Positions 1,334 through 61,444 are shown, counted from the first letter of the stretch. The stretch is DNA of 64,000 nucleotides from an uncultured Bacillales bacterium (GCA_947648915.1 CANSPQ010000001.1:12429-76428); one strand, 5' to 3'. The notes: generated from the letters alone by a model not told the origin. Translations and numbers: made by a program.

Positions 1334-2347
1334 TTAAAATAATGAGCAAAATAATTGATTTCTCTCTATTCCATATGGAGCAAGGGCTCCACTCATATCA
1401 ATAATAAATGCTAATAGCATTGGTAAGAATATAATTGCAGCACCTATTATAAGTCTCTTGATTAATTTTGACCATGCTGTTTTGAAGTTCTTTTCTTCCC
1501 CAGATAATACAATACCAATAAAATCAATAATAGTTAAAATAACGATTATAATTGGAACAGCAAGTTGAATCAGATCAATTATTTGTTTTAATATATCTGT
1601 TATTCTATCTCCAAATACATTACACCCTGCCGATTTTTCTTGAATATCATCATCTTTAATTTCAACACAATCATTTCCTACGCATCCTATTGTATGTGTA
1701 AAGTTAGCACAATTTGAATATCCTTCCTTTTGTTCAAAGGAGATATTAAGTTTAATTTCTCCGTAAATAGAATCGCAATTTTCACATAAACAATATAATT
1801 TATCACGGCAACCACTTAATGTTGAATCGCCAGAACAATTGCTTCCATCAAAATGTAGGCTTATCTTCCTATTATCACGTTGACTCACAAGAAAATAAGT
1901 ATTTAAAGCTGTCCCTGTACTATTGTAATTAAAATTTACACTAGGGGTTGTACCTGGAATTTCATATCGGCAACTCAAAGTTTCAGAAGGCATCCTTTTG
2001 GTTAATGTCATTTTTACATCATTTGATGCATCATATCCATCTACTTCAGAGCAACTTCTAGAAAAAAGGTGTTTTTCAAAGGCATCATGAGTCACATAAC
2101 AAACTGTGTTAGGAGCTGTATTAAAATTTCTATAATCATTTTCACTGACACCATGAAATTCTATTCCTACTTCATTATCAAATTGACAATAAGAGTTTAT
2201 ACCAACATCTTCGCTATAACATGTCACCCATGAAATTCCATTAGAATCCACATATTCAACAGATATTGGAGCAGCATCTACTTTCCCCACATTACAAATA
2301 AATAATACAATTGATAAAAGAAATATATTTCTTAATGTTTTTTGCAT
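1334..2347 (-). CDS. Cys-rich secreted protein with N-terminal signal peptide and two C-terminal TM helices (Tad-locus accessory protein)
   Basis: ORF track 337 aa. The signal-like N-terminus is MQKTLRNIFLLSIVLFICNVGKVDAAP. There are about 20 Cys. The C-terminal hydrophobic pair contains a KLIKR motif shared with the next gene. Stop is 15 nt upstream of the next gene's RBS. Confidence 0.6.
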   Translation of the reverse strand: MQKTLRNIFLLSIVLFICNVGKVDAAPISVEYVDSNGISWVTCYSEDVGINSYCQFDNEVGIEFHGVSENDYRNFNTAPNTVCYVTHDAFEKHLFSRSCSEVDGYDASNDVKMTLTKRMPSETLSCRYEIPGTTPSVNFNYNSTGTALNTYFLVSQRDNRKISLHFDGSNCSGDSTLSGCRDKLYCLCENCDSIYGEIKLNISFEQKEGYSNCANFTHTIGCVGNDCVEIKDDDIQEKSAGCNVFGDRITDILKQIIDLIQLAVPIIIVILTIIDFIGIVLSGEEKNFKTAWSKLIKRLIIGAAIIFLPMLLAFIIDMSGALAPYGIERNQLFCSLF

Positions 2348-2450
2348 ATAATCACCTAAACTTAAATTTTCACAAATATATTATAACATAAAAAAAAATA
2401 ATAAGAAATATAAATCCTATTACTTTTTTTAAATCTTGCCTATTTAAACT

Positions 2451-2810
2451 TTAGGGCTTAGGCTTAGAACAATCTCCGTTAAGGAAGCAATTAAAGCAAC
2501 TTTTTTCTTTTTCAGTACCCTTTACTGAATCAGCATCTATTGCACCAAAAATCCATTGTACCAATGCTATAACAAAGAATACTAACACTGCATATAATAC
2601 TCTTTTAATTAACTTTGTTTGAGCGCCTTTCATTTCTTTTTCATCATTAGACATTACTGCTTTTCCTAAATCAATCATACCAAAGATAACTAATATAATT
2701 GGGATAACAATTTTAATAATATTTACTACAAGATGAACTGTATCTGGAATAACATCATCAATATTTCCACCTAATCCATTACATGTAACCATATCTAACA
2801 CTTCTAACAT
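2451..2810 (-). CDS. Small membrane protein (two TM) with KLIKR C-terminal module paralogous to the 1334..2347 C-terminus
   Basis: ORF 2451..2843. The start is more likely the internal ATG at 2808-2810 (MLEVLDM...), which is preceded by TAGGAGG. Contains KGAQTKLIKRVLYAVLVFFVIALVQWIF, compared with KTAWSKLIKRLIIGAAIIFLPMLLAFII in the neighbouring gene. Confidence 0.55.
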   Translation of the reverse strand: MLEVLDMVTCNGLGGNIDDVIPDTVHLVVNIIKIVIPIILVIFGMIDLGKAVMSNDEKEMKGAQTKLIKRVLYAVLVFFVIALVQWIFGAIDADSVKGTEKEKSCFNCFLNGDCSKPKP

Positions 2811-2898
2811 TTTAAAACCTCCTATAATTCTTATTTGAAACAAGGAAACTTGTCTCTTTCTTATTCACTATACCCTTTTTTCCTTTTTTTGTCAATGT

Positions 2899-3906
2899 TT
2901 ACTTACTAAATAATCCTAAAATACTATTTTTCTTCTCTTGCTCATCGGTTTTTTGACGTGTAAAACCTAATCTTACCAACAACAAATTGAGTGCATGTAT
3001 ACTTTTTTCTCTTTCATCTAATGGTGGCATATTATAATAGATTTTAGATCCTGACTCATATTCAAAATCAAGCACATCTTTGGCATTTAATAAACTTTGA
3101 TTTAAAATAATCTTCTTATTCTTCAATTCTTTAAATGCACTGCTATTGATTAGCATTAACCTATTCAACTTAATAATGGATGGTTCTACTAAGTAAAGAA
3201 CCTCATCACAAAAGCTTTCTGCTTCTTTGCTATCGTTGATATCAATTAATATGGCATTGTAATCTCTATATTTTGCGATTGCATTTCCAATATCTGTATT
3301 TGGAATAGAGATTAACTTCTTATCATTGAAATAGCGAAAATCGCTTTTGTTTACTTCTAATGCAATGACAGAATAATTTTTTTCTAACTGTTTTACCATC
3401 ATATAAATTAATGTAGTTGCCCCTGATTGTTTGGTGACATTTTTCACCCCAATAATTTTATGTGTCACAACAGGTTCAGTTACCTCTACATATTTTTCTA
3501 CTACAACATCTTGCACTTTATTTGCGTCCAATTGATGAATGTGAGCAACATCACGGTAAGTATTAGGATTATTGTATAGATACATAATTCCTTCTATGTT
3601 TTTCGTAAAATTATAAATTCCCATAGAAATCAATTTTGATAAGTAATCATTTGATCCACTTTCTTCGGAGTCATCTAGCAATAGTATTACCTTATCCATA
3701 TCTAGGGAGATAGATAACCTTTGTAATGTTTTAATATCTTTATAATTTTTAAGAGCTGTAATATCCAAAATCATTCTCTGAAAAAAGAAATTTTGAAACT
3801 GTGTAATGATATCATCGACGGAAAATTCGCCTTCTAAAGTTTTAATTACATCAATTTCTAATCCTTGTAACATTGCTTTTTGTTTATTTGCTATAATTAC
3901 GTTCAT
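2899..3906 (-). CDS. TadZ/CpaE-like pilus-assembly protein (pseudo-receiver N-domain + degenerate ParA/MinD-type ATPase domain)
   Basis: 335 aa. The N-terminal part looks like a receiver fold. The central IIGVKNVTKQSGATTLIYMMV segment sits where a ParA/MinD deviant Walker A (KGGxGKTT) would be, but is degenerate. GGGAGGA RBS. Lies within the flp-tadE cluster. Confidence 0.5.
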   Translation of the reverse strand: MNVIIANKQKAMLQGLEIDVIKTLEGEFSVDDIITQFQNFFFQRMILDITALKNYKDIKTLQRLSISLDMDKVILLLDDSEESGSNDYLSKLISMGIYNFTKNIEGIMYLYNNPNTYRDVAHIHQLDANKVQDVVVEKYVEVTEPVVTHKIIGVKNVTKQSGATTLIYMMVKQLEKNYSVIALEVNKSDFRYFNDKKLISIPNTDIGNAIAKYRDYNAILIDINDSKEAESFCDEVLYLVEPSIIKLNRLMLINSSAFKELKNKKIILNQSLLNAKDVLDFEYESGSKIYYNMPPLDEREKSIHALNLLLVRLGFTRQKTDEQEKKNSILGLFSK

Positions 3907-3924: not shown

Positions 3925-4347
3925 TTATCCTATTATCCCCATTATTTTGGTTTCCCCATACACAGGAAATTCTAAATGATTTCCTATAATTGGAAAATCA
4001 AAATACATATAAGCCGCTACACCATAGTATTTTCCTTTATTTGTATCATACTCATAAACACAATAACGGTAGCCGTTATTTGTAGTGACAATTGACTCTT
4101 GTCCATTACGTGTTGGGCACCCTTTGTTCGTTGTATCTACACGATATCCCATTTCACTTAATGTTGAAGCAATCTCACTTTTTGCTGCATCATTATATGC
4201 TTCGTATTTTTCAATAATATCTACTATTCTATTCTTTACCTTAAACGCCTTTGAATAGGTCAAAGAACCAGCAAAAAAGAATATAAATATAACTACAAAA
4301 ACAATAACAATTTGAAGTATATATGCATTTGCAATTGATTCTTTCAT
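3925..4347 (-). CDS. TadE/TadF-like pseudopilin (paralog 2)
   Basis: 140 aa with a single N-terminal TM (ILQIVIVFVVIFIFFFAGSLTYSKAFKV). Shares with 4359..4808 the blocks SLTYxKxFKV...EKxExYN...EIxxxLxxxGYR...CPT...YxYCVYEY, including a conserved Cys pair. Confidence 0.55.
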   Translation of the reverse strand: MKESIANAYILQIVIVFVVIFIFFFAGSLTYSKAFKVKNRIVDIIEKYEAYNDAAKSEIASTLSEMGYRVDTTNKGCPTRNGQESIVTTNNGYRYCVYEYDTNKGKYYGVAAYMYFDFPIIGNHLEFPVYGETKIMGIIG

Positions 4348-4358
4348 CTTATCACCAA

Positions 4359-4808
4359 CTATCTTTGACTAAATTCATAAATACGTTCTGTTTCGGAATA
4401 AATAGGTAAGGAAAATGTTCCACCAACGATAGGGATATCCATATAAACATAAGTTAATATTCCATAAATAAAATATCGACTATTTTTTTCCGGATATTCA
4501 TAAACACAGTATTTATAGTTTGTCCCTATCCTTGTAATAGGTTGATATTCTATTCCATTATGTCTATGAGTTGGACAATTTAAATTACCATTGCTACTTG
4601 AGCGATACCCTAAGTTGGCTAAAGATGTTTCAATTTCTGCTGCTGATAATTCATTATACCCTTCAAATTTTTCTAATGAATTAGCAATTTTCCCATTCAC
4701 TTTAAAGGATTTCATATAACTTAAGGTTGCCGCCAAGAAACCGAAAGTAATCACAATAAACACAATCATAATATTATATAGAAATGTACTTCCGATTGCT
4801 TGTCTCAT
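4359..4808 (-). CDS. TadE/TadF-like pseudopilin (paralog 1)
   Basis: 149 aa. N-terminal TM (FLYNIMIVFIVITFGFLAATLSYMKSFKV). Paralogous to 3925..4347. Lies directly downstream of the flp pilin gene. Confidence 0.55.
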   Translation of the reverse strand: MRQAIGSTFLYNIMIVFIVITFGFLAATLSYMKSFKVNGKIANSLEKFEGYNELSAAEIETSLANLGYRSSSNGNLNCPTHRHNGIEYQPITRIGTNYKYCVYEYPEKNSRYFIYGILTYVYMDIPIVGGTFSLPIYSETERIYEFSQR

Positions 4809-4828: not shown

Positions 4829-5011
4829 TTATGCACCTGTCGCTCCAGAGCAAGTACCATTTGTCCATACTCCACCGTTATTATGACATTCACTTCTCGC
4901 GCTTGTATTATTCATCATATTTGTAATGATTGGTGTAGCGATTGCGACAATAACACCAATTAATATGATTGTTACAACTGTCATATTTGCTTCTCCAGTT
5001 ACTTCTTTCAT
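4829..5011 (-). CDS. flp: Flp/Fap-family type IVb prepilin (60 aa)
   Basis: MKEVTGEANMTVVTIILIGVIVAIATPIITN... has a short leader, a G then E(+1) processing-site-like motif, a hydrophobic helix and a short Ser/Thr/Asn/Cys-rich tail. RBS AAGGTGGTGA. Sits in Tad locus context. Confidence 0.7.
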   Translation of the reverse strand: MKEVTGEANMTVVTIILIGVIVAIATPIITNMMNNTSARSECHNNGGVWTNGTCSGATGA

Positions 5012-5039
5012 TCTATCACCACCTTACACTTTCTATGTT

Positions 5040-5075
5040 TATAGTATAACACGTTTTACTTGAATTATCAAACAA
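5040..5075 (-). promoter_or_regulatory. Sigma-A-type promoter for flp operon: -35 TTGATA, 17-nt spacer, extended -10 TGtTATACT
   Basis: Read on the minus strand: ttTTGATAattcaagtaaaacgTGtTATACTat, with the -35 at 5066-5071 and the -10 at 5043-5048. It lies about 30 nt upstream of the flp RBS, in the 76-nt gap after the yfhO-like stop. Confidence 0.5.
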
Positions 5076-5087
5076 TTCCATAATACT

Positions 5088-7502
5088 TTACTTTTTTTTA
5101 CATATGATAAAATATAAACTAGATAAAAATATACTGCATATAGAAATAATGAGTCCTATAGGTAATCCTACTGGAATGTAATTTAAAACGATTTGATGTT
5201 TTCCTTTTTCCAATTCTATTCCTAAAAAGGTATCTACAACTTTAGTAGATAAGGTAGGAATTCCATCCACTTTTATATGCCATCCTTTATCATAAGGAAT
5301 AGAAAGAAATAGTATAGAATTATTTTCTAATGTAATTTCTCCATACAATTCATTTTGGTTTATTTGAATATTTTGCAATGTATTTTTTTGTAACACTTTT
5401 ATTTGTTGCTGAAATAATTCTTCATTCAATTGGTAAATCGAAATTCCTTCTACCTGAGTTTTTCCTTTTGGATGAATGGTTAATTCTATTAAATCTTCTA
5501 CCTGAGTTGCTTGAAAGACGCCATGTGCCTCCCACTCTTTCAATTCTTTTCCATTTAAAGTAACTTGTGCAATATCTTGTTGTAAGGTATTGCCTTCTTT
5601 ATAGTGAATCTGTATGTAATAATCTCCAGATGAAACAGGCACTCTATATTCTGTTTCAGTATCTTTGCTCTCATAAATCATTTTGAATACATCTTCATTA
5701 CTACCAGTGAATGCTTTTAATAGATCATTTTGAAAGGTAAAAGCATTCGATTCATTTAAGTTTATTCTATTATGATGTATGAAATAACCAATTGGTAGGC
5801 TATATGGATTTTGATATAAAATGTTATCTTCTGTAATCCAATCAATCGGTTCTAAAATATCATATCCAGTACTTTTTTCTCTCGACGTTATATAAGTTTG
5901 AATTCCAAGTAAAGAATCTATTACGATGGTATTTGTATTCACATCAATGTTTGATACTCCAGTTGTTGGATAACCTGCCTTCTTCATAAAGTGATAAATT
6001 TCTTTGGAATTGGTTGATAAAAAACTTGTGAGTTCTTTTGTATTACAAATCATAGAATCTAATCCGCTATAAGAATCGGCATGCCCTGTTCTATAAATAG
6101 GATCAGAGTTTTGGCAATTAGAAATCATACTTTCTAGTTTGATGTTGTCACTTGCGCCTTGAAAGGTAAGCTCAAAATTCAGTAATATTTCACCAAATGC
6201 AATGATAAAAAATAAAATTGAAAAAATATTTTTTTGATTTCTCCCCCTCTGATATAATAAAATGCTATATAAAAGTAAAAATATACCTGTTATAACAATT
6301 TCCTCAAAACCTAAATATTCATAATTTGAATAAATGAGAATGATACTCATTAATATATATATAATTATAAGTGAAATTATTTGTTTGATAGAAACCTTTA
6401 TCTTAGAATAAGTAGAAGTTGCAACAGCAATAAGAAAAAAGGTAAATAAATAAGAGTTTCGATTCATGAAATAATTAGGCATCGAAAATCCATGCCATAA
6501 ATAAATGAAAAATGGAACAATACAACTTAGTAATATTAGAACAAGAAGAAAAAATGTTCTTTTTTTATTTTTGATATCACTACTTACAAAATAAAAGTAA
6601 ACTAACACAATAGAAAATACACCACAATATAGATTGGTTCCATGCGCATTGAGTACGTTCTTACAATTATGGGCACCTATATAGAGTTTTGCAAGCAATT
6701 CTTTCAAATTGTTAATAATAGAATGAATATCCCACATGTTATTTACCGAATAGCGAAATACACTCTTTAGTTCAATTATGGTAGGAAGTAATAGACACAT
6801 CGTAACCCCTACACCCAAAATGGAACATAAAATAAAATGAAAAGTTGTTTTTGATATTATTTTTTGACCTTTTATATACATTTGAATCAAAAAATAGAAG
6901 AATACAAAAATACAAGTCATATAGCCTGTATAAAAATTACTGAAAATTGTTAACAATAAGAAGCTAAAATACATTCCTTTTTTGCTATATGCAATCAATC
7001 GATCAATTCCCAGTAAAACAAGTGGTAATAGATATACAGCATCTAGCCACATCACATGAAAATAATATTGTACTGTATACCCCATAAGTGCATAGGCTGT
7101 TGAAAATAGATAATTCATCTTGTGATTTTGTGGATAATGTTTTTGTAAATATAAATGCATGGTTCCACCAGATAATCCAATTTTGAAAACAATTAAAATA
7201 AATAAGGCAATTGGAATACTCGTTTTTGAAAAGAAAATTAGAATTATATTGAGTGGGCTTGCTAAGTAATAGGCAAATGTCGCTATCATACTTCCGCCCA
7301 TACCCTTAGAAAAAGAATATAGTATGCTTTCTTTTCCCATAAATACATCTCGTAAATAGGAAAACAAAGAAACATATTGTGCCTTCATATCCGATATCAT
7401 AAAATTTTCGCTTTTTATTGTATATCCTAGTAAGTAATATCCTATTATAAATATAATAATTGGGATACCAAAGGCAATTACAAATTTTTTCATCTCTTTC
7501 AT
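5088..7502 (-). CDS. YfhO-family polytopic membrane glycosyltransferase (GT-C fold) with large C-terminal extracytoplasmic domain
   Basis: 804 aa. About 14 N-terminal TM helices followed by a roughly 330-aa soluble domain. Overall architecture and N-terminal sequence (YLLGYTIKSENFMISDMKAQYVSLFSYLRDVFMGKESILYSFSKGMGG...) are typical of bacterial YfhO proteins. Confidence 0.6.
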   Translation of the reverse strand: MKEMKKFVIAFGIPIIIFIIGYYLLGYTIKSENFMISDMKAQYVSLFSYLRDVFMGKESILYSFSKGMGGSMIATFAYYLASPLNIILIFFSKTSIPIALFILIVFKIGLSGGTMHLYLQKHYPQNHKMNYLFSTAYALMGYTVQYYFHVMWLDAVYLLPLVLLGIDRLIAYSKKGMYFSFLLLTIFSNFYTGYMTCIFVFFYFLIQMYIKGQKIISKTTFHFILCSILGVGVTMCLLLPTIIELKSVFRYSVNNMWDIHSIINNLKELLAKLYIGAHNCKNVLNAHGTNLYCGVFSIVLVYFYFVSSDIKNKKRTFFLLVLILLSCIVPFFIYLWHGFSMPNYFMNRNSYLFTFFLIAVATSTYSKIKVSIKQIISLIIIYILMSIILIYSNYEYLGFEEIVITGIFLLLYSILLYQRGRNQKNIFSILFFIIAFGEILLNFELTFQGASDNIKLESMISNCQNSDPIYRTGHADSYSGLDSMICNTKELTSFLSTNSKEIYHFMKKAGYPTTGVSNIDVNTNTIVIDSLLGIQTYITSREKSTGYDILEPIDWITEDNILYQNPYSLPIGYFIHHNRINLNESNAFTFQNDLLKAFTGSNEDVFKMIYESKDTETEYRVPVSSGDYYIQIHYKEGNTLQQDIAQVTLNGKELKEWEAHGVFQATQVEDLIELTIHPKGKTQVEGISIYQLNEELFQQQIKVLQKNTLQNIQINQNELYGEITLENNSILFLSIPYDKGWHIKVDGIPTLSTKVVDTFLGIELEKGKHQIVLNYIPVGLPIGLIISICSIFLSSLYFIICKKK

Positions 7503-7642: not shown

Positions 7643-8017
7643 CTATACTTCTACTTTTTCTTCTGAAATCTCACAAAGATATTTTTTAAAACTTTCAATA
7701 TATGTTTCAATTTCTTCTGGATCTACGGTTCCAACTTTCATCATTATATGACTATTTGGCAATTGGTATAATACATCAGTTTTCACAATACTATCCTTGT
7801 TTAACCCGTTCTTTTTATTTTTTGGAATAAGAATATTATATTTATATTTTTGCTTTTGAATCTGTGATGAAATCAACATACCAAAATAATCTATTGATAT
7901 TGCTAAATTATTACCTGTTTTTTCGTAATCAATTATTACAAATAAATGATTATTCCCCTTGCTCCCATCAGCATAGTCATATTCGCTTGCAAATACGATA
8001 TCTCCAACGTTATACAT
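7643..8017 (-). CDS. MazF/PemK-family toxin-like protein
   Basis: 124 aa. The blocks VGDIVFASEYDYADGSKGNNHLFVIID, ISSQIQKQKYKYNILIP and NKDSIVKTDVLYQLP align by eye with B. subtilis NdoA/MazF ([61 protein letters not shown]). Confidence 0.5.
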   Translation of the reverse strand: MYNVGDIVFASEYDYADGSKGNNHLFVIIDYEKTGNNLAISIDYFGMLISSQIQKQKYKYNILIPKNKKNGLNKDSIVKTDVLYQLPNSHIMMKVGTVDPEEIETYIESFKKYLCEISEEKVEV

Positions 8018-8037
8018 TTATCATTTTTCATTCCTTT

Positions 8038-8208
8038 CTACTTAGTCTGATATGCTTGTAGTTTTCCTTTGTGTTGCTCATTTTCAACGGGGTATTTTAC
8101 AAAAGCCTCTTTATAAGAACGAACTAAATTTTTACTTTTAGCAAGAGCAATAATTTTCTTAATATCTTGCTTTAAATCACTTTTTAAAGCGTTCTCCTTT
8201 GCTTTCAT
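8038..8208 (-). CDS. Small ORF (56 aa) upstream of MazF-like gene; putative cognate antitoxin
   Basis: Not in the ORF track because it is under 60 aa. ATG at rc(8206-8208) is preceded by GGGAGGAGAA. It encodes MKAKENALKSDLKQDIKKIIALAKSKNLVRSYKEAFVKYPVENEQHKGKLQAYQTK, and its stop lies 21 nt before the toxin start. Confidence 0.4.
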   Translation of the reverse strand: MKAKENALKSDLKQDIKKIIALAKSKNLVRSYKEAFVKYPVENEQHKGKLQAYQTK

Positions 8209-8432: not shown

Positions 8433-9218
8433 TTAAAAATTCATCATCTGCATCATTGCAAATAATAACAATAACAAGATCCCACCACCAGTTGTAACTA
8501 ACATTGTCATTGTCTTATTTTCCATTGTGTCCAAACGATTTTTATATTTCTGTTCACGTACCTTATTTTGTAATGTAGATACAGTTCTTGCAAATAAAAC
8601 GAGTTGTTCCTGTTTGTTTTCTTGTGATCCTAGTCCAAGACGATATAACAAACGCATCATACGCATGGAGTCTCTAACAGGATATTCTTTTGCAAAATCC
8701 ATATAAGGATTTACGCTAGAATCTCCTGCCTCAATTTTTGTAATCATTTTTTCAAGTCCTGGTTTAAAAATCTCAGGTGCGGTATCAATAGATTTACGAA
8801 TTGCGACTGGTACTGTATAGTGTTGCACTAAGATTTCCAAGCTTTTTAGATAATATGGTAACATTTGATTAATTTTGTTTAAATTTGCCTTATAATACTT
8901 TTGTAAACTTGTATATGGCAACTTAAATACTACAAATCCTAAAATGAATGCAAATAATATATTTACAAAGGAAGGATTAGAAAGCATGAAAATGAATATG
9001 ATAAATACAATTACAACTAAACCATTACGCAAACGTTTTGAAAATTCACGGTTGACATCTACTTCATTTCCATGACGTACCGTTAGTAAAAATTTATAGT
9101 CATCTTCCATTAGGAATCTGAAATATGGTTCTGCATCTGTTAAAAACTTTTGTGTATCAATTTTCTTGTTATACTCTAATACAAATAAAATGATTAGTGC
9201 GATTAAAATAAATTCCAT
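8433..9218 (-). CDS. TadC-like (T2SS-F domain) inner-membrane pilus platform protein
   Basis: 261 aa. An N-terminal TM, an internal TM pair and a C-terminal TM with a cytoplasmic helical domain, which is T2SSF/TadBC topology. Start overlaps the upstream TadB stop (ATGA). Confidence 0.5.
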   Translation of the reverse strand: MEFILIALIILFVLEYNKKIDTQKFLTDAEPYFRFLMEDDYKFLLTVRHGNEVDVNREFSKRLRNGLVVIVFIIFIFMLSNPSFVNILFAFILGFVVFKLPYTSLQKYYKANLNKINQMLPYYLKSLEILVQHYTVPVAIRKSIDTAPEIFKPGLEKMITKIEAGDSSVNPYMDFAKEYPVRDSMRMMRLLYRLGLGSQENKQEQLVLFARTVSTLQNKVREQKYKNRLDTMENKTMTMLVTTGGGILLLLLFAMMQMMNF

Positions 9219-10120
9219 TACTCAGCCCCCACATTCTCATTGTAATATTTCTCACCTGATAATAAGAAATAAGTATTGATAATAATAATTGCGTGCAATA
9301 ATAGTTGAACCAAACCATTGTCTAATAATTTAATATAAGATTCTACCCCTAATAAAAACTGAACTAACATAACCATTAAATATAAAATAACACCAAATTG
9401 TAAAAACTTTTTATGGAATTGTGCTCTGTCCAAACGGTCTCTATAAACATTTTCCACCAACATATCAATATCTAGTGACATGTTTTCTAATGCATCACTT
9501 GAGTTTTTTGAACCCTCATTTGTAATTTGTAAGAATAATTGATGCATATTTTTTACGATAAAATAATCATATTTTTGATTCATAAATTGAATAGATTGTT
9601 CAATCGTACCATTTTCATAAGCAAGATCAATCATTGTTTTGACATCTGATCTTACAGGATCTTCTAATACACCTGATTCATAAACACCTTCTAGTGCTTT
9701 GATAAAGGATTGTGTTGTTGCAAATTCCATAATGGTATTGGTAGTATATACTTGAACTTGTTCAAAGATAAATTCACTGTAAATTCTTTTACATCTTAGA
9801 TAAGTAAGGTAAGGAATCGTAATAACAGCAACTACCGCATACACAACTGATAATAATAAATTATAGAAATATAAATATGAAATTACAGCTGCCGCAACGG
9901 CAAATATGATCACTTGTAATGTATATTGTTTTTTGGTATATTCCTGTCCGAGCTCTTTTACTTTTTCTCTTACTTCTTTAAAAGAATAAGGAGCATACTT
10001 ATCATAAACATTTCCTACTTGTTTTGATACATATTTATAGACATTTGTTCCTGCACTATTTCGGTAAGCAAGAATAAATATAATTACAAAAGCAATTAGG
10101 ATAAATACGAATATTTCCAT
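9218..10120 (-). CDS. TadB-like (T2SS-F domain) inner-membrane pilus platform protein
   Basis: 300 aa. N-terminal TM, a roughly 110-aa cytoplasmic domain and C-terminal TMs. Lies directly downstream of the CpaF/TadA ATPase. Confidence 0.5.
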   Translation of the reverse strand: MEIFVFILIAFVIIFILAYRNSAGTNVYKYVSKQVGNVYDKYAPYSFKEVREKVKELGQEYTKKQYTLQVIIFAVAAAVISYLYFYNLLLSVVYAVVAVITIPYLTYLRCKRIYSEFIFEQVQVYTTNTIMEFATTQSFIKALEGVYESGVLEDPVRSDVKTMIDLAYENGTIEQSIQFMNQKYDYFIVKNMHQLFLQITNEGSKNSSDALENMSLDIDMLVENVYRDRLDRAQFHKKFLQFGVILYLMVMLVQFLLGVESYIKLLDNGLVQLLLHAIIIINTYFLLSGEKYYNENVGAE

Positions 10121-10133: not shown

Positions 10134-11252
10134 TTATTCATATGAAATATTTTGATTTGTGGTTACTTGTTGTTGATTGTTCACATTATTTTGTGAAGTT
10201 GCTTGTATTACATTAGGTGATAAAATAACACCTTGTGAATCTAGGTAATCAAGTAAATATTTAGAAGGTTGATTTCTAATAACTTTACCTGATGTTGATT
10301 TTTGATAAATTGTATTATATTTCGCTTCATTGTTCTCTGTTACATAGAATTCTGTTACTTCGGCAATTTCACGGACAAAACGTTTGGTTTCTTTATCTTG
10401 ATATCCACGAATATACACGCCTATTTGGATATAACGGTAAATTGTTTTTAAGAATTGGTCAATATCCTGACTTGTCTCTAACAAGCTGTACATACGATGT
10501 GGAATAGAAGAGGCTTTATCCGCATGGATTGTAGATAAAATGTAGTGTCCTGACGAAATAGAGTTACGAACTGCCATTACTGCTTCTGCACTACGTACTT
10601 CGGATAATAATATCCACTTTGGATTTTGTCTCATACAAGTTACCAATACATCTGTATATGAAGCTATATTATTGGTTTTCATCGCAACGATATCACGATG
10701 TGGAAAAATTCGGTCTAAATGAAGTTCTAGTGTATCTTCCACTGTAATGATCTTCTCATTTTCTCTCGTATGAGAAGCTAAGTATTTAATAAATTCGGTC
10801 TTACCTGAACCAGTTTCCCCACATACAATAATATTGCAATGTCCTAAAACACACTGTACTAGAAAATCATGGATATCTAAATCAACGTATTTGTCTTGTA
10901 ACAATTTGTCTTTCTCAAGTCTTATTTTGGCTGGAGTTTTACGAATTACACAAGCAATTCCATTACGAGCAATGGACTCATGAATGAAATTGAGACGTAA
11001 TTCGGCACCCTCTGCATCCAAGAAGGGATGTGCCATATTGAATGACTTTCCCATTACATTGGAACATTGAAATGCTAATTTTTCCATTAATGCATCATTA
11101 ATATCTGGATTTTCAACACGAAAATTTCCTTTGGATAATGTTTTTAAATGAATTTGTCCACCATTACTGTAGGAAATATCAGTAATGTCATCATCCTCTA
11201 AATAAGGTTTGATAGGCCCAAAATCAATTTGGGAGAACATATTATCATTCAT
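10134..11252 (-). CDS. CpaF/TadA-family secretion ATPase (GspE/VirB11 superfamily)
   Basis: 372 aa. Walker A is VCGETGSGKTEF. The Asp/Glu box plus His box, ILLSEVRSAEA...GHYILSTIHA, matches the (V/I)GE(V/I)RgaEA...GHxGxxxTxHA signature of T2/T4 secretion ATPases. Confidence 0.7.
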   Translation of the reverse strand: MNDNMFSQIDFGPIKPYLEDDDITDISYSNGGQIHLKTLSKGNFRVENPDINDALMEKLAFQCSNVMGKSFNMAHPFLDAEGAELRLNFIHESIARNGIACVIRKTPAKIRLEKDKLLQDKYVDLDIHDFLVQCVLGHCNIIVCGETGSGKTEFIKYLASHTRENEKIITVEDTLELHLDRIFPHRDIVAMKTNNIASYTDVLVTCMRQNPKWILLSEVRSAEAVMAVRNSISSGHYILSTIHADKASSIPHRMYSLLETSQDIDQFLKTIYRYIQIGVYIRGYQDKETKRFVREIAEVTEFYVTENNEAKYNTIYQKSTSGKVIRNQPSKYLLDYLDSQGVILSPNVIQATSQNNVNNQQQVTTNQNISYE

Positions 11253-11255: not shown

Positions 11256-12065
11256 TTAACCTTCTACTTGCCCCATTGCTGCAGTTAATTCATCATTTGG
11301 AACAGTATTAGCATTGATAAAGTCTCTTAAAGTTTGTGAACTTACCATAGTGCTTCCCTCTGGTACTACCGCAGTTCCACCATGTGGTACTGGGAATAAT
11401 TCAGCTGAGAAAGCAGTCATGTATTTTCCTTTTAATAACAATACGTTAATTTCTGGTTGTACTCCAAAGATTAAACTACTTGGTGTACGAGCTTCATCGC
11501 TATTTTCAAATACATTTCTTCCTGCAGAATCTTTTACAGCTAATACTTTTACGTTTTCTACTAATTTACCAACCATAAGCTGTCCATTTTCATTTACAGC
11601 TTTCATGTAAATATCAATGTAATTTCCAGGAAAAATTGAATTTCCATAAGTTTTATCCATTGTAACAGCCATATTGTAAGGAACTTCTCCATCGGCTACT
11701 TCAACAAATGCGGAATCTGGTAAATCAGCTTCATTTACTACAACTCCACTATAGAACATACTTCCTTTTGGAATTACAGTATTGTAGTTGCTATATTTAC
11801 CAATCACAAATGCGGATGAACGAATTACGTTACTCTGCAATACAACTGGTGCTACATCGACATATTCAATCATGTCAGATGTAATTCTTGTTCTTGGTTG
11901 AATGGTCTGTGCTGCTACTGGTATTCTTTTAACTGGGTTTACCATTCTGTTAATTTGGATACGATATCCAAAGAATAAGACTAAGATAATCGCGATTACT
12001 CCAATAATCGTAACTGTGTTTTTGTTTCTAAAAAATCTTTTTAATGCAATCATAAAATTATTCAT
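11256..12065 (-). CDS. CpaB/RcpC-like Flp pilus assembly protein (N-terminal TM + SAF-like domain)
   Basis: 269 aa. TM is VTIIGVIAIILVLFFGY. This is followed by IPVAAQTIQPRTRITSDMIEYVDVAPVV, typical of the SAF/CpaB fold. Immediately upstream of tadA. Confidence 0.5.
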   Translation of the reverse strand: MNNFMIALKRFFRNKNTVTIIGVIAIILVLFFGYRIQINRMVNPVKRIPVAAQTIQPRTRITSDMIEYVDVAPVVLQSNVIRSSAFVIGKYSNYNTVIPKGSMFYSGVVVNEADLPDSAFVEVADGEVPYNMAVTMDKTYGNSIFPGNYIDIYMKAVNENGQLMVGKLVENVKVLAVKDSAGRNVFENSDEARTPSSLIFGVQPEINVLLLKGKYMTAFSAELFPVPHGGTAVVPEGSTMVSSQTLRDFINANTVPNDELTAAMGQVEG

Positions 12066-12081
12066 ATTTTTCTTCCTTTCT

Positions 12082-12483
12082 TTAATATGGTGTTTCTAAA
12101 ATCGCATCCAACCGATTGGAAATATCAAAATCGATAATTTCTTCTGTTACATTGGACTGTAATTTAGTGGAAACCCTCAAACTTACTTTTGGAGGTGTTT
12201 CGTTCACATCATATATTTCAACTTTATAAGTATTTCCTATGGTTACACTTTCTGCGAACCTCCTTATAAAGTTTTCAACAAATTTTTCACGATCGATACG
12301 AACAGTACCGGTTCTACGATAAGAGGCTAAGTCAACAGCGTCGTACATAGCCGCTTCTGTAATTTCTTTTAATAGGATATAGTTTTGTTCATCTGTATTG
12401 GTGACATTCTGGAAAAAGAAGATAAAAGCAACTGATGTGACACCGAGTAAGATAACAAATATACCCCAAAACGATTCTTTCAC
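12082..12483 (-). CDS. Small N-terminally anchored protein, pseudopilin/TadG-like candidate
   Basis: 133 aa. Begins MKESFWGIFVILLGVTSVAFIFFF, and the same MKES start is used by the 3925..4347 pseudopilin. Has a single TM and then a soluble domain. Confidence 0.4.
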   Translation of the reverse strand: MKESFWGIFVILLGVTSVAFIFFFQNVTNTDEQNYILLKEITEAAMYDAVDLASYRRTGTVRIDREKFVENFIRRFAESVTIGNTYKVEIYDVNETPPKVSLRVSTKLQSNVTEEIIDFDISNRLDAILETPY

Positions 12484-12495: not shown

Positions 12496-15400
12496 CTATC
12501 TTTCTGAACATGCATAGAAATCACTATGTGATGAACTACTGCATACACTTTTATCCGTTTGAAGACCATATAATGGTTCTCTTATAAAATTACTTAAGCA
12601 AGCTACACCATCTTTACAAACTAATGTAAAATCTGCATAGCCATCATCACGAGAATCATTATACCTACGTATTTCTTTAATGGTATTGGTATCTAATATA
12701 AAGGTATAAAGTGGATCTTTCTGATAAACGGCGTTACCCTCTACACCACGGTTTTTTAATATTTGGGTTTCTACTAATTTTACACTATTCCAGTTTGATC
12801 CTGGATATCTTCCTATATGTGGATCTAGACTAAACTTATTGGTAGTATTACTTACCCCTGAGCCAGCTGTTTTCCCTGGGAATGGATTTCTAAGTGAAAT
12901 AGTTCTATAAATGATGTTAATTCCACCATAAGGACAAACAGTATCCTGACAAATTTTAACTGCCTCATCTTTCGAATATCCTGAACTCATATAACTAAAT
13001 ACACAAGGTTTAATATTCATTCCATCATTATATGTTCCATGTGGACAATGGAAATCCTCATTTATATTACATAAAGTACTCACACAATAATCGTAGGTTT
13101 TTCCGTTATTCAAGCAAGAGGTAATTTTAATCGTTCTATCATTTGGACAAAACTTATCATCTTCACATACTTCGTCAAAGGTCTCGTCACTATCACAATA
13201 TAGAATTTGAGCATCAGCACACGTAATCGTTGTAGAACTACTATTAGATCCATATATCTTACAATATAAATCTTTTCCAGCATGTTTTGTTCCCTCTGGG
13301 CAAACACACTCATCAGTAGGTGCATTTGTTACAGAATAATTACATACATATGGGTTTTGATTCGCAAGTTCTGTAAATTTTCCATCTTGGCCTAAACTAT
13401 CTACAATAATATTTAAATCATATGGTTCTTTTACATTTGCCGTAGAAGATATTGGTAAATTACTATATCCAATTTTAATATAGTCAACAGTTGGGATACT
13501 CATTGATGGTTTATTTGTTCTTTTCTCTACATAATGATATAAATTGTCTGGTAAAGAATAGGTTGCGGTTGCTGTAATTGTAATTGGTCTTTCATCAATT
13601 AATCGTACTATTTCTAGATATTTATCCATTAAACCTCCACGCAACGGCAGATCAGAAATTGTATAAGTTTTTAAAACATCTGAATGTTGACGTACATACT
13701 CTGTTGCGTCACATCCCTCACATCCAAAACTCTGACCTGACAACTTTAGTTGATGGGTTGTTCCATATTCTGGATCATTATATGACATAGATGTATCACT
13801 TTCAAAAGAATATAAGTCAGATGGATCCCATTTTGTTTTTCCTGCATATACAATATTGTTTAAAAATTCGGTTGCCCCATTATATGCATTAATATAGTTT
13901 TTACAAACATTAATTTTAGCATTAATAGCATTTAATTCGTTCTGCTTTTTATTCACCAATGCTTCACGTTGACTTTTTTCATTATTAGTACACGTAGATG
14001 TTATTGTTGTGACATTATTAGGTGGATTGTTTCTATCACAATCATTTAGACAGCTGTTGTACTCATCACCTCCATTATGAGGAGTATCAGCACACTCTCT
14101 TTTACAACTGTTTCTTTTATCATAGTTTTGATCTACTGTATTGGTTACTGTTGTACATTTATCTAACTCAGCTCTTGCTTCTTCTAATTCTCTCTGGCTT
14201 TTTAATTGTTGATCTCCATATGCACGATCTCCAATAAATGCGCAAGCATCTTCGGTTGCAAGTCCTTTGCTATCTATTTTTCCTCTTGCTGCAACCGTTC
14301 TTCTTATATTTTCAAGTTCTCCAACATAATTAATACCATTAACTGTTTGGTTTATGTTATTTATATGTGCTTGAAATGTTGTGTTCATATCTTCTTGAGA
14401 CATTGTATTTGGTGAAAATTTAATTTTACAAGTTTTAATTCCCTCATAACTTAAAGAATATAAATTTCCCCAAATAGTATTTAATGTTGCAGTAGATGTT
14501 GGCCATACAATGTGTGTTCCAACAGGTACTGGGTTAGCAATGCCCCCAGGATAATATTGATATGCTTCCTCTTTGCAGTATAACCATGCAACACTTCCGT
14601 CTCCAATCATTCTTGTGGGTTCTCCGTCCTCACTCGCGTTGCCACACTCGCTTCCATCTAATTCTTGCCAATAATGTCCAACGTGTGTTTGATTATCATT
14701 TGCACAAACTGCAGGTGTTCCTATAGTTTTTAATACACCACCTCTACAAACAGGAGCTGGTGGCTCAGAGCAAAAATGTTCTTTACATGCTTCTTCATCC
14801 ATATTGCCACAATCTGATAAGTAGTGCGCATTTCCATTATTATCTGTACAAACATAATCATTAGAATCATCAGGACAATACTGAGCTGCACACTCAACAC
14901 GACATTCCGTCATTTTACTTGGGTTTCCATTCATACAACTAGTGACACAACTTGTAATATCGACATTCTGCATGGTTGGATCTGTGCATGTTATATTTTG
15001 CGGACAATACAAACTTTTACAATAATTTTCTTCCTTGCCACTATTCACACAAGAAGTAATATCATGCGATACATTATTTACATCTGTACAAGTCTTTTTT
15101 TCTGTACAAGGATCACCAGTAATAATTGTTAAAAAGCGTTGATAGTATCCTCCATTTTTATGATGATAAAAATAAAGATTTCCCATATACATTGTTCCTA
15201 TATTTAATATTTCTTCAAAGTCATCTATAGCTTCTTTTGTTAAATTTTGACTTTTATCATTACTATAATGTCTAACTCCAACATAATAACTCATCAATGC
15301 ATTTGACGCATTTCCTTCAAATAAAGTTTTATCAAAACCTGACATTCCATCTGCTCTTAGCCAAAAATATACTTGAGTGACTAGATATTTTACCTGTCCT

Positions 15401-15723
15401 ATTTCACTACCTAAATTCGCATTTAATATATATTGAACGGCTCTTCTATCTCTATTATTTATTATTATTAACGGTAATTGATTATTATTTCTATAATATG
15501 CATTTTCCGTTGGGTCGACACTATATCCTGGGTTTAAACATAATGCTACAGCAGAACTCTTACTATCTGATATTTTTTCAATGTACAGAGTTTTTTTACT
15601 ATTTTTATAACTAAACTCTATTTGCGTCTTTCTAGGCTCTAGTGTCGCACAAAAATCTTCTGCCCCTACATTCACTGTAAACACTGCTAAAAAGATAGTA
15701 AATGCTATTAATATTTTTTTCAT
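12496..15723 (-). CDS. Giant (1075 aa) Cys-rich secreted protein; candidate pilus-associated adhesin
   Basis: Signal peptide MKKILIAFTIFLAVFTVNVGAEDF. Extremely Cys-dense central region (residues ~200-380: ...CPQNITCTDPTMQNVDITSCVTSCMNG...CRVECAAQYCPDD...). A coiled-coil-like segment follows. No LPXTG motif and no C-terminal TM. Uninterrupted 3.2-kb ORF. Confidence 0.55.
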   Translation of the reverse strand: MKKILIAFTIFLAVFTVNVGAEDFCATLEPRKTQIEFSYKNSKKTLYIEKISDSKSSAVALCLNPGYSVDPTENAYYRNNNQLPLIIINNRDRRAVQYILNANLGSEIGQVKYLVTQVYFWLRADGMSGFDKTLFEGNASNALMSYYVGVRHYSNDKSQNLTKEAIDDFEEILNIGTMYMGNLYFYHHKNGGYYQRFLTIITGDPCTEKKTCTDVNNVSHDITSCVNSGKEENYCKSLYCPQNITCTDPTMQNVDITSCVTSCMNGNPSKMTECRVECAAQYCPDDSNDYVCTDNNGNAHYLSDCGNMDEEACKEHFCSEPPAPVCRGGVLKTIGTPAVCANDNQTHVGHYWQELDGSECGNASEDGEPTRMIGDGSVAWLYCKEEAYQYYPGGIANPVPVGTHIVWPTSTATLNTIWGNLYSLSYEGIKTCKIKFSPNTMSQEDMNTTFQAHINNINQTVNGINYVGELENIRRTVAARGKIDSKGLATEDACAFIGDRAYGDQQLKSQRELEEARAELDKCTTVTNTVDQNYDKRNSCKRECADTPHNGGDEYNSCLNDCDRNNPPNNVTTITSTCTNNEKSQREALVNKKQNELNAINAKINVCKNYINAYNGATEFLNNIVYAGKTKWDPSDLYSFESDTSMSYNDPEYGTTHQLKLSGQSFGCEGCDATEYVRQHSDVLKTYTISDLPLRGGLMDKYLEIVRLIDERPITITATATYSLPDNLYHYVEKRTNKPSMSIPTVDYIKIGYSNLPISSTANVKEPYDLNIIVDSLGQDGKFTELANQNPYVCNYSVTNAPTDECVCPEGTKHAGKDLYCKIYGSNSSSTTITCADAQILYCDSDETFDEVCEDDKFCPNDRTIKITSCLNNGKTYDYCVSTLCNINEDFHCPHGTYNDGMNIKPCVFSYMSSGYSKDEAVKICQDTVCPYGGINIIYRTISLRNPFPGKTAGSGVSNTTNKFSLDPHIGRYPGSNWNSVKLVETQILKNRGVEGNAVYQKDPLYTFILDTNTIKEIRRYNDSRDDGYADFTLVCKDGVACLSNFIREPLYGLQTDKSVCSSSSHSDFYACSER

Positions 15724-15734
15724 TTGTACACCCC

Positions 15735-16379
15735 CTAAAATAGGCTACTTTTTTTATTATATCTATAAATTATAATAATTCCACCTACAATAAATATTGG
15801 TAAAACAATATAATAATAATCCAAATAGAATTCCAATATATAATCATATATTCCTTTAATATTCTCTTCTTCTTTTTTTTCAATTGGCTTTTCTTCTACT
15901 ACTTTTAAACTATTTACTTTTTCTTTAAATTCATTATAGGAAAGTGTCATATTTGTAAATTTCTGACACAATTCATTTTCTTCCATCCCGATACATACCT
16001 CATCTTGATAAAATGGATTGTATGGTGGAGTTGTTACATAATGAGAATATAATAACTGATTACTACAATAAATATCATTTGTATAAACATCAAATCGATA
16101 ACTTGTATTTGATCTTAAATTATAAATTGTAATCTCATTACCTTGATAATTATAGGTTTTATTATTCTTAATATCTTTTATGATAAAACCCTCTGGAATA
16201 TTGGATAGCGTAATTTGAAATGAAATGCGTCCATTTTCTTCGGTATAAGTATAACTAGATGTAATATTACTCGCTAATGTTTGATATTTTACTTTATCCT
16301 CATTGGAGCAAATAATTGCCTTTGTTTGAAACGGCAATAGTAAAATAAATAACCCTAAAAGAATTGGCAGTCGTTTCAT
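15735..16379 (-). CDS. Secreted protein with signal peptide and C-terminal TM anchor (214 aa)
   Basis: MKRLPILLGLFILLLPFQTKA signal. C-terminal YIVLPIFIVGGIIIIYRYNKK anchor. Several N-x-S/T sites. Confidence 0.5.
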   Translation of the reverse strand: MKRLPILLGLFILLLPFQTKAIICSNEDKVKYQTLASNITSSYTYTEENGRISFQITLSNIPEGFIIKDIKNNKTYNYQGNEITIYNLRSNTSYRFDVYTNDIYCSNQLLYSHYVTTPPYNPFYQDEVCIGMEENELCQKFTNMTLSYNEFKEKVNSLKVVEEKPIEKKEEENIKGIYDYILEFYLDYYYIVLPIFIVGGIIIIYRYNKKSSLF

Positions 16380-16451
16380 CCTATCTATCCTCTCTTTCTT
16401 ATTATAACATGAATTCCTTAATCTACAAGTGATTATTCAATATTTTTGACA

Positions 16452-18035: not shown

Positions 18036-18467
18036 AATCCACCTTCCTATTCTAATATATAGTATATCGTAAAACAGATTAAAAAAAAAGTATTTTTTAA
18101 AAGTACAATTTATTTTATTATAGACAATCATAAACATTTTTCTTACCCATTTTATGTAAATAAATGCCAATTTTTGAATTAAGGGATGAAAATATTAATG
18201 CTTTTATACTTTCAATGAACAAAAATGCCGAAAAACATAATTTTGTTTAGTACATAAAACAAAATTGCTAGCAAATGAAAAAATAGCATAGATTATTCTG
18301 ATAGTATGTGAAGGATATTTATCTAAAATTAGATTATTCTATGATTGAGACATAATGAGAGTTATAAGGATTAGAAAAATATACAATAAATCTGATTGTA
18401 GGCATAGTACATAATATGTTATACTTAATATGTAAAAGTATACATTTAGAAAAAGGTGGCATAAAAT

Positions 18468-47640: not shown

Positions 47641-47641
47641 A

Positions 47642-51102: not shown

Positions 51103-51483
51103 TTATTTTTCAATAAATATTTTTCTTGTTATAAAATTCCATACCATCACAATTGCAGTCGCAACCAATTTACTTAACATATAATATATTTTTCCAATAT
51201 CTGTCATAAGGTACATGACAAGTTGATTGATTCCAAGACCAATCACACTAAGAATTGTAAATACAATAATCTCTTTATAGGTTTGTTTTTTCTTGACATC
51301 AAATACCCAATAAATACTTGCGATATAATTAAAAACTAAAGAGACTGTAAATGAGATAATGGATGAGACCATATAATGAATATGAAAAAACTCGGTAAGT
51401 AGGTAAAGTAAACTATAGTCAATGAAAAAAGCAATAACTCCTACAACCCCAAATTTTAAAATTTGTTTTATTAAATTTTTCAT
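51103..51483 (-). CDS. GtrA-family small membrane protein (polysaccharide synthesis/flippase-associated)
   Basis: 126 aa, 4 TM. KFGVVGVIAFFIDYSLLYLL...NYIASIYWVF matches the GtrA signature. Confidence 0.6.
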   Translation of the reverse strand: MKNLIKQILKFGVVGVIAFFIDYSLLYLLTEFFHIHYMVSSIISFTVSLVFNYIASIYWVFDVKKKQTYKEIIVFTILSVIGLGINQLVMYLMTDIGKIYYMLSKLVATAIVMVWNFITRKIFIEK

Positions 51484-61307: not shown

Positions 61308-61444
61308 ACACTTCACCACTTATACTTATTTTACCATGTTTTTGATAAAATAAATGACGAATTTGTAATATATTTATCATATCTGTAAGGCAAATGTATA
61401 CAATTTTAGATGTTTAGTGATTGTATTTTACGATACTTAAATGT

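Follow-up and report, generated by a model that had tools for sequence, protein, structure and literature searches.

Pilin glycosylation has been well studied in Gram-negatives (PilO/TfpO, TfpW and PglL) and in archaea (AglB). TfpW, a glycosyltransferase of the GT-C fold class, is encoded beside pilA and glycosylates the Pseudomonas pilin (cited in PMC5836110; bioRxiv 10.1101/2020.04.19.049825), and pilin glycosylation blocks pilus phages (bioRxiv 10.1101/150227). YfhO of Bacillus subtilis and Lmo1079 of Listeria glycosylate teichoic acids together with a CsbB/GtlA-type glycosyltransferase of family 2 (GT2) and GtcA (PMC5836110, PMC7389260). Two YfhO-family enzymes of streptococci, PgfM1 in Streptococcus mutans and PgtC2 in S. 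pyogenes and S. pneumoniae, attach O-linked sugars to proteins of the surface and membrane at Ser/Thr-rich regions (PMC12041528, PMC5856776), so protein glycosylation is already a described role of the family. Our literature search found no paper linking a YfhO-family enzyme to a pilin.

Here we analysed a 64,000-nt stretch of DNA from an uncultured Bacillales bacterium of the gut (GCA_947648915.1 CANSPQ010000001.1:12429-76428; hereafter the window), in which a YfhO-family gene lies directly upstream of a gene for a 60-aa pilin-like protein. An initial annotation had proposed that this YfhO glycosylates the pilin, other proteins of the pilus or both, pointing to their N-x-S/T sequons, and had regarded this as a role undescribed for the family. 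PgfM1 and PgtC2 take away the latter point, and only a pilin as acceptor would be new. The reading that we favour, and to which we give an even chance, is that YfhO is an active GT-C enzyme recruited as an accessory, often gained and lost gene beside the major small-pilin gene, where it would serve as a pilin-directed O-glycosyltransferase. Related loci are referred to by L-numbers and YfhO homologues by P-numbers.

The YfhO gene and its pilin-like neighbour

Every gene of the locus is carried by the minus strand, and the features around YfhO are the following.

5088..7502, minus strand: YfhO-family GT-C glycosyltransferase, 804 aa (PF09586, E = 3e-154, full length)
5012..5087, minus strand: intergenic region of 76 nt with a promoter-like TTGATA-17-TATACT (5071-5043) and the ribosome-binding site of the pilin gene (consensus match only)
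4829..5011, minus strand: pilin-like protein, 60 aa (alignments of 6 and 70 orthologues)
4359..4808, minus strand: 149-aa protein with an N-terminal hydrophobic segment, candidate minor pilin (fixed place after the pilin gene in all complete loci; no Pfam match)
3925..4347, minus strand: 140-aa protein resembling the 149-aa protein in sequence and layout, candidate minor pilin (no Pfam match)
7643..8208, minus strand: 56-aa open reading frame (ORF) and PemK/MazF toxin of 124 aa, cargo between the platform gene and YfhO (PF02452, 4.8e-9)
8433..10120, minus strand: two polytopic membrane proteins of 300 aa and 261 aa in the TadB/TadC position (gene order kept; no T2SSF match at E ≤ 1)
10134..11252, minus strand: CpaF/VirB11-type secretion ATPase, 372 aa (PF00437, 2.2e-27; NCBIfam VirB11, 7e-32, and TadA-family, 4.5e-25, both below cutoff)

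YfhO matched PF09586 with 515.9 bits against a cutoff of 28.5, with residues 10-787 aligned to positions 1-835 of the 835-position profile. This was its sole Pfam match, and no Wzy_C or O-antigen-ligase match was found. Its top NCBIfam models were PgfM2 (2e-65) and PgfM1 (4e-63), for which the scores of 221.5 and 213.7 bits lie far below the PgfM1/PgfM2 equivalog cutoffs of 1500 and 1400 bits. The AlphaFold2 model (predicted local distance difference test score, pLDDT, 91.6; predicted template modelling score, pTM, 0.92) has an outward-facing beta-rich domain at residues 470-775 and a last helix at 780-803, and its top PDB folds by Foldseek were all GT-C enzymes, namely AftD, EmbA/B, PglB, ArnT and STT3 (probability 1.00, template modelling (TM) score 0.33-0.49). 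A sequence search of the PDB returned no solved relative of YfhO, and an exact-sequence look-up with the window YfhO gave no match.

The window YfhO has lost none of the positions that are conserved in 90% or more of 123 homologues; D38, Q42, Y43, W152, D154, R348, E438 and R471 are among those kept. D38, Q42 and Y43 (99% conserved) are located in the loop after the first transmembrane helix, which is the place of the catalytic acid in other GT-C enzymes, and by this analogy D38 is the putative catalytic residue; no conserved DXD motif was found in YfhO. The ratio of nonsynonymous to synonymous substitution rates (dN/dS) against relatives was 0.18-0.25 for YfhO and 0.02-0.06 for the ATPase, platform and 335-aa genes, indicating that YfhO is under purifying selection that is laxer than that on the core genes. 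As judged from its sequence and model, YfhO is probably an intact and active enzyme. There is a slim chance at best that it is a hitchhiker without current function, be it inactive, decaying or merely a structural membrane protein. Such a gene would be expected to show the patchy distribution, frequent loss and faster evolution than the core genes that YfhO does show, but YfhO is full length in every locus (784-827 aa), and both its dN/dS and its complete set of family-conserved residues argue against decay.

The initial coordinates of the two ORFs (7502-5088 and 5011-4829) and the gap of exactly 76 nt between them (5012-5087) proved correct. A promoter of the pilin gene had been proposed in this gap, and a TTGATA-17-TATACT element with a TG extension is indeed present together with a strong AGGTGGTG ribosome-binding site, but promoter-like matches across this AT-rich region were not above chance (108 found against 120.8 expected). 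YfhO had also been described as wedged directly against the upstream platform gene, from which it is in fact separated by the 56-aa ORF and the PemK/MazF toxin gene (8208-7643).

In the alignments of 6 and 70 orthologues, the N-terminus of the 60-aa protein, MKEAAGEAN[LM]T, was almost invariant; it is followed by a hydrophobic helix and, at the C-terminal end, by a short loop that the conserved C42 and C54 close. This N-terminus fits neither the Flp motif (G/xxxxEY) nor the GFxxxE prepilin motif; in the window protein it reads MKEVTGEANMTVV, with no EY, and the G/xxxxEY motif is missing. No Flp_Fap match was obtained at E ≤ 1, the top match being the archaeal Pilin_N below cutoff (E = 0.0099), and among the 120 best listed of 332 homologues none carried a pilin name or a Flp_Fap domain. 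A pilin role is nevertheless the best reading of the protein because of its layout of N-terminus, helix and Cys-closed loop, its fixed place between the platform gene and two pseudopilin-like genes, and its tandem copies in three loci (L019, L031 and L080). A prepilin peptidase (TadV/CpaA, A24) was found neither among the window ORFs of at least 90 aa nor among the called genes of related loci.

Recurrence of YfhO beside pilin genes

We scanned genomes for related loci with the ATPase as the anchor and one genome per species, and used the best 80 of at least 561 loci, 63 of which have the complete interval from the 261-aa gene to the 149-aa gene. This interval contained only a pilin gene in 48 loci, no pilin gene in 5, other content in 4 and YfhO in 6, so that the accessory YfhO occurred in about 10% of the complete loci (6/63). 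The four with other content comprised three with unrelated inserts (L029, L043 and L089) and one with an inverted pilin gene and a 1-kb gap (L069). In the five loci that lack a pilin gene between the platform gene and the 149-aa gene (L017, L025, L035, L039 and L042), the gaps were 2-23 nt. Together with two further loci in which the interval was incomplete, YfhO was found in 8 of about 65 informative loci, and at 8/80 it was the sole recurrent insert between the platform and minor-pilin genes, all other cargo being single occurrences.

YfhO abutted one or more pilin genes in every YfhO-containing locus, in three arrangements. It was upstream of the pilin gene in the window, L019, L021 and L027; in L066, L071, L073 and L075 it was placed between the pilin and 149-aa genes, at gaps of 24-70 nt; and it was inverted beside three tandem pilin genes in L080. 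The L080 region (13233-18469) also includes an apparently N-terminally truncated or mis-called third pilin gene and a 380-aa polytopic protein before the minor-pilin gene; the latter, also beside YfhO, was considered as a glycosyltransferase but not counted, since no family could be assigned to it. For the closest YfhO homologues (35-96% identity; P0001, P0002, P0004, P0006, P0007, P0013 and P0016), all seven of the contigs returned showed YfhO directly upstream of a small pilin. The pairing was also maintained where the pilin module is split from the ATPase module (L093 and L154).

When four core locus proteins were used to build a tree, the YfhO-containing loci formed at least six patches interleaved with loci lacking YfhO, and the YfhO proteins of these loci split into several clades, which together indicate repeated gain or loss with the position retained.

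The pairing was further found with canonical type IV pilins. The gene for P0070, a YfhO 32% identical to that of the window, immediately follows the gene for a canonical type IV pilin of 126 aa (MNKKGFTLIELL...) in an unrelated chromosomal setting, and YfhO genes were located 32-93 nt downstream of a GFTLIE type IV pilin gene in L094/L095/L098/L100, L099 and L104. The L099 and L104 YfhOs are 39% and 34% identical to the P0070 group, respectively, and the C-terminal domains of the pilins differ in each. These pairs of a GFTLIE pilin (~125 aa) and YfhO represent three divergent lineages and lie away from assembly genes (L094, 7546-10469; L098, 436-3361; L099, 2242-5119; L104, 3531-6949); the L104 YfhO is a 982-aa protein with a GtrA-like C-terminal extension. 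The P0070 relatives P0112 and P0115 have no pilin neighbour, so the pairing is not universal in this clade. In a sample of 80 diverse YfhO loci from metagenomes, pilin neighbours comprised four type IV pilins, encoded 32-93 nt upstream of YfhO, and one small MKEA-type pilin downstream (L154). The pairing with type IV pilins is an independent replicate of that with small pilins.

The surroundings of YfhO vary among the relatives. The spot between the platform gene and YfhO contains an intact PemK/MazF pair in the window (7643-8208), a degraded PemK-like sequence in L001 (9251-10000), DUF1016/YhcG fragments in L091 (6754-7636) and likewise different or degraded cargo in L003. The window and L001, whose YfhO proteins are 96% identical, share about 140 conserved nt directly 5' of YfhO. 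We also considered 46-aa ORFs upstream of YfhO in three relatives as a conserved partner and rejected them as unrelated remnants. Nine of 77 species-representative contigs (L011, L013, L014, L018, L024, L036, L065, L070 and L083) end less than 400 nt past the 261-aa gene, where the pilin gene or YfhO would follow, which suggests that strain heterogeneity at the platform-pilin junction breaks assemblies.

Candidate donor genes, acceptor sites and competing explanations

Candidate genes for a lipid-linked sugar donor, in which the carrier is undecaprenyl phosphate (C55-P), and a second GT-C gene were found elsewhere in the window.

46702..47640, minus strand: PgfS/GtrB/CsbB-type GT2, 312 aa, with two C-terminal transmembrane helices, candidate C55-P-sugar maker (PF00535, 1.4e-38)
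51103..51483, minus strand: GtrA-family protein, candidate C55-P-sugar flippase (PF04138, 3.5e-28)
59829..61319, minus strand: second GT-C, 496 aa, ArnT/PMT_2-like, beside the polysaccharide cluster (AlphaFold2/Foldseek and PMT_2 matches of homologues)

The top NCBIfam match of the GT2 was PgfS (4.2e-96) at 322 bits, below the 500-bit cutoff. Both donor genes belong to a cell-wall polysaccharide cluster on the minus strand (46702-57993), which encodes the PgfS-like GT2, Alg13/Alg14-like proteins, a GT4, GtrA, a double GT2 (638 aa), more GT2s, an ABC-2 exporter pair and an O-antigen-ligase-like protein, and which is interrupted by an Rpn-family nuclease gene (50143-50994). The 496-aa protein has no Pfam match of its own, but 14 of 30 homologues match PMT_2; its AlphaFold2 model (pLDDT 89.0) had ArnT (5f15) as the best fold (E = 4e-7, TM score 0.60), and a profile comparison between it and the YfhO alignment gave no signal. 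As modelled, this second GT-C could serve the wall polymer, in which case YfhO would be free for another acceptor.

As for the acceptor sites, all of the sequons initially listed were present, with four in the pilin, three in the 133-aa protein and four in the 214-aa protein, but the inferred richness did not exceed what composition predicts. A comparison with the proteome background had been called for because Asn is frequent in AT-rich genomes; run against composition, it gave 47 N-x-S/T sequons in the locus against 48.4 expected, and 88 against 96 in the rest of the window. In the pilin alone there were 4 (NMT, NNT, NTS and NGT, of which two overlap) where 1.34 were expected (p = 0.026, without correction for the 15 proteins), and a similar 'excess' was observed for the 335-aa protein (7 against 2.9 expected, p = 0.016), which is presumably cytoplasmic since it has no signal peptide or hydrophobic segment. 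The only sequon conserved across pilin orthologues was N9-x-T11, which sits in the near-invariant N-terminus and, being placed before the hydrophobic helix, is unlikely to be exposed. Within the exposed part, no site was conserved across the orthologues, and the pilins of the YfhO-containing loci L008 and L093 lack sequons there altogether. Sequon density in the exposed part was higher in pilins with YfhO than in those without (4.0 and 1.95 per 100 aa, respectively; Mann-Whitney p = 0.003, uncorrected for shared ancestry).

This density, the surplus in the window pilin and the presence of Asn35 in 15 of 16 pilins with YfhO are what would speak for YfhO N-glycosylating the Asn of sequons in the pilin and other locus proteins. 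We consider this very unlikely, close to negligible, because sequons are not enriched in the locus, the exposed ones are not conserved, and YfhO lacks any STT3 Pfam match as well as WW and WWD/WWDxG motifs; moreover, the characterised YfhO-family enzymes all modify hydroxyl groups (PMC5836110, PMC12041528). Thus, the initial suggestion of a pilin-glycosylating YfhO gained comparative support from its recurrence at the pilin gene in three orders and at least six patches and from the type IV pilin pairing, but lost its sequon argument.

There is one weak lead to a site for an O-linked sugar: the residue after the conserved Trp (T50 in the window) is Ser or Thr in seven of eight short-type pilins with YfhO and in none of about 16 without, a correlation confounded by shared ancestry; the nearest relative without YfhO, L012, has Glu at this position.

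Several observations weigh against a pilin-directed role. The T50 correlation, besides its confounding by ancestry, has an exception in L006. Near-identical pilins occur with and without YfhO (window and L012; L066 and L037), so the pilus evidently works without it. The same spot gathers unrelated cargo, including toxin-antitoxin pairs, AAA ATPases, an Rpn nuclease and a HAD hydrolase, so that insertion there need not imply function, and cargo content varies even between loci with 96% identical YfhO. The GT2 and GtrA genes are 40-45 kb from YfhO, outside the locus and not co-transcribed with it. In the sample of 80 YfhO loci, CsbB/PgfS-like GT2 neighbours (13) outnumbered pilin neighbours (5), and for some close YfhO relatives (L010, L096 and L097) the setting is an ordinary chromosomal one that lacks a pilin. 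Finally, no locus protein has a Ser/Thr-rich disordered region like those of the PgfM1/PgtC2 substrates, the maximum Ser+Thr count per 15-aa window being 8 in the 572-aa protein and 5 in the pilin, and neither Ser/Thr content nor Ser/Thr-rich windows of ten locus proteins differed between loci with and without YfhO.

Some of these observations would be expected under the main competing reading, in which YfhO is hotspot cargo and its substrate is lipoteichoic acid, wall teichoic acid or some other polymer of the envelope. Phage resistance or altered surface recognition would then be the benefit, and YfhO would not act on the pilus directly. Teichoic-acid glycosylation is the canonical, genetically shown role of the family (PMC5836110, PMC7389260), the platform-pilin interval is a hotspot for unrelated genes, near-identical loci dispense with YfhO, no locus protein bears the compositional signature of a substrate, and the donor genes are inside a cell-wall polysaccharide cluster. 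A wall enzyme would, however, have no reason to land repeatedly beside pilin genes in three orders, with one clade inside the pilin/minor-pilin operon at gaps of 24-70 nt. The finding that YfhO is also paired with an unrelated class of pilins at other genomic sites, and the presence of another GT-C already beside the polysaccharide cluster, point the same way, and we regard a role in envelope-polymer glycosylation as possible but on balance unlikely.

The matches of YfhO to PgfM2/PgfM1 and of the GT2 to PgfS as their top NCBIfam models raise another explanation, in which YfhO would be a general protein O-glycosyltransferase of the PgtC2/PgfM1 kind acting on many membrane-associated proteins or on the large, Cys-rich surface protein of 1075 aa, with the pilin not being a specific target. 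PgtC2 and PgfM1 have broad substrate ranges (PMC12041528), and the divergence of YfhO is paralleled by that of the two locus proteins that evolve fastest (1075 aa and 214 aa). This is improbable in our view, given that the scores are far under the equivalog cutoffs (221 against 1500 bits), that a Ser/Thr-rich disordered region is found in no locus protein and that YfhO stays with the pilin module where it is split from the ATPase and adhesin half (L093 and L154).

Under the favoured reading of YfhO as a pilin-directed O-glycosyltransferase, the cytoplasmic PgfS/GtrB-type GT2 (46702-47640) would load a monosaccharide onto undecaprenyl phosphate, and the GtrA-family protein (51103-51483) would flip the product across the membrane, so that the sugar faces outward. 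YfhO, with Asp38 in its first outward loop and its outward beta-rich domain, would then move the sugar to Ser/Thr hydroxyls of the exposed C-terminal loop of the pilin before filament assembly, and the two minor-pilin-like proteins could be additional acceptors. The pilus would thereby gain a sugar coat that varies among strains and that, by analogy with Pseudomonas, could block pilus-specific phages or antibody recognition. We infer the pilin as acceptor from the gene neighbourhood; the O-linkage, the sugar and the biological benefit are likewise conditional parts of this scheme. A broader and still tentative proposal, which we place slightly short of an even chance, is that YfhO-type GT-Cs constitute an unrecognised monoderm pilin O-glycosylation system, recruited independently to the small pilins of the widespread Tad-like/T4SS hybrid described below and to the unrelated GFTLIE type IV pilins, with fast gain and loss and strain-level surface variation. 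If true, the protein-glycosylating role of the family known from PgfM1 and PgtC2 would extend to filament subunits, and there would be a handle on strain-level surface variation, such as phage or antibody escape, in abundant uncultured gut Bacilli.

The host apparatus and comparison with known systems

The remaining features of the locus are as follows.

2899..3906, minus strand: 335-aa protein in a TadZ/ParA-like position (present in all complete loci; no Pfam match)
1334..2843, minus strand: 130-aa and 337-aa proteins with hydrophobic hairpins like those of type IV secretion system (T4SS) pilins, start of the T4SS half (PF18895, 0.0016, and NCBIfam Mbov_0395-type, 0.0037, both below cutoff)
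11256..12483, minus strand: RcpC/CpaB-like protein (269 aa) and DUF5411 protein (133 aa) (PF16976, 9e-7; PF17424, 5e-54; TIGR03177 CpaB, 1.3e-8, below cutoff)
12496..18170, minus strand: proteins of 1075 aa (Cys-rich, with signal peptide), 214 aa and 572 aa (kept at the 5' end of the locus; no Pfam or NCBIfam match)

The gene order 5' of YfhO is thus 572, 214 and 1075 aa, DUF5411, RcpC/CpaB-like, the T2SSE ATPase, 300 aa and 261 aa, and that 3' of the pilin-like gene is 149, 140 and 335 aa followed by the two T4SS-pilin-like hairpin proteins. T2SSF, Flp_Fap, TadE and ParA-type domains were absent from the locus proteins even at a relaxed Pfam E ≤ 1, as was peptidase A24. The names tadB, tadC and flp are therefore unsupported, including the initial labels tadC and flp, since neither the 261-aa and 300-aa proteins match T2SSF nor the 60-aa protein Flp_Fap, and the latter has no G/xxxxEY. 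The assignment as RcpC/CpaB-like passed narrowly (PF16976, 9.2e-7; 29.2 bits against a cutoff of 28.8), and the subfamily of the ATPase is ambiguous because its NCBIfam VirB11, TadA-family and FlaI matches are all below cutoff.

In relatives (L001, L002, L008 and L091), the cluster continues into genes for TrbL_4/VirB6-like, TraC-like and VirB4-like proteins and a SpoIID+CHAP hydrolase, which indicates that the Tad-like genes are one half of a Tad-like/T4SS hybrid. The cluster is thus not simply a Tad adhesion locus. No relaxase or integrase was seen in the examined parts of the hybrid cluster. Phage and plasmid collections contained only distant ATPase relatives (about 30-37% identity), the nearest plasmid genes being labelled 'CpaF/VirB11 family' (~31%). 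Species-representative genomes contained at least 561 ATPase matches, the best 80 of which were 76-90% identical and came from uncultured 'Bacilli/Tenericutes/Mollicutes' gut metagenome-assembled genomes. A related operon with DUF5411 and CpaF has been termed a 'postulated secretion-related system' in Clostridia (PMC9523054). The hybrid apparatus is highly conserved in uncultured gut Bacilli with most of its components outside described families, and it may hold more interest than YfhO.

Beyond this locus, the window consists of chromosomal DNA from a spore-forming member of the Bacillota (GerA/B/C, PBP5, LigA and PcrA). It encodes, all on the minus strand, a 490-aa protein with a prepilin-type N-terminal methylation motif (39500-40972; PF07963, TIGR02532), which stands alone between the housekeeping genes for LigA and PcrA with no assembly genes near. 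Also on the minus strand are an AbiEi/AbiEii toxin-antitoxin pair (21324-22759), a second PD-(D/E)XK Rpn-type gene (29754-30728), a BRO-N domain protein (45695-46540) and a Fic/DOC protein (62487-63167).

Compared with known systems, the apparatus resembles Tad/Flp (type IVc) pili in its CpaF/TadA-type ATPase (of ambiguous subfamily), two polytopic proteins, RcpC/CpaB-like protein, pilin of 55-100 aa and two pseudopilin-like genes. It differs from them in having no T2SSF, Flp_Fap, TadE, A24 or G/xxxxEY and in being fused to a monoderm T4SS set (VirB4-, VirB6- and TraC-like proteins and CHAP). The structure of the Caulobacter crescentus Tad pilus shows no modification density (PMC10710030).

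For the enzyme, the Pgf system of S. mutans (PgfS, PgfM1, PgfE and PgfM2) and GtrB/PgtC2 combine a YfhO-family GT-C with a GtrB/PgfS-type GT2 that makes a C55-P-monosaccharide and transfer the sugar on the outside to protein Ser/Thr, as is proposed for the window. In the window, by contrast, the scores are far below the equivalog cutoffs, the GT2 is in another operon and the locus has no epimerase or second YfhO, and the sugar would go to a 60-aa pilin whose loop is short and disulfide-closed, not to a Ser/Thr-rich disordered region or an LPXTG adhesin. CsbB/GtcA/YfhO, which modify lipoteichoic acid in B. subtilis, and Lmo1079, which acts on wall teichoic acid in Listeria, represent the same Pfam family, with a predicted architecture of many transmembrane helices and a large outward domain before the last helix, and follow the same logic of a GT2, a GtrA-like flippase and a GT-C; canonical yfhO is co-transcribed with csbB, whereas the window YfhO is in a pilus/T4SS cluster beside a pilin gene and 40 kb from the GT2.

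Among pilin-modifying systems, AglB and PglB (STT3), the N-glycosylation enzymes of archaeal pilins and archaellins, likewise use a GT-C fold on pilin-like subunits, at N-x-S/T, and the only, weak Pfam match of the window pilin is to an archaeal pilin N-terminus, but the window YfhO is not an STT3, has no WWDxG and is accompanied by sequons that are neither enriched nor conserved. TfpW, which adds D-arabinofuranose, and TfpO/PilO of Pseudomonas aeruginosa are the counterparts in genetic arrangement, being accessory, strain-variable membrane glycosyltransferases encoded beside the major pilin gene that use a lipid-linked donor at the outer face and shield the pilus from phages. The window YfhO presumably belongs to another GT-C family than TfpW, and its host is a monoderm whose pilin is small and Tad-like, not of type IVa. 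Furthermore, the Pseudomonas accessory gene tracks the pilin allele group, whereas near-identical pilins are found here with and without YfhO.

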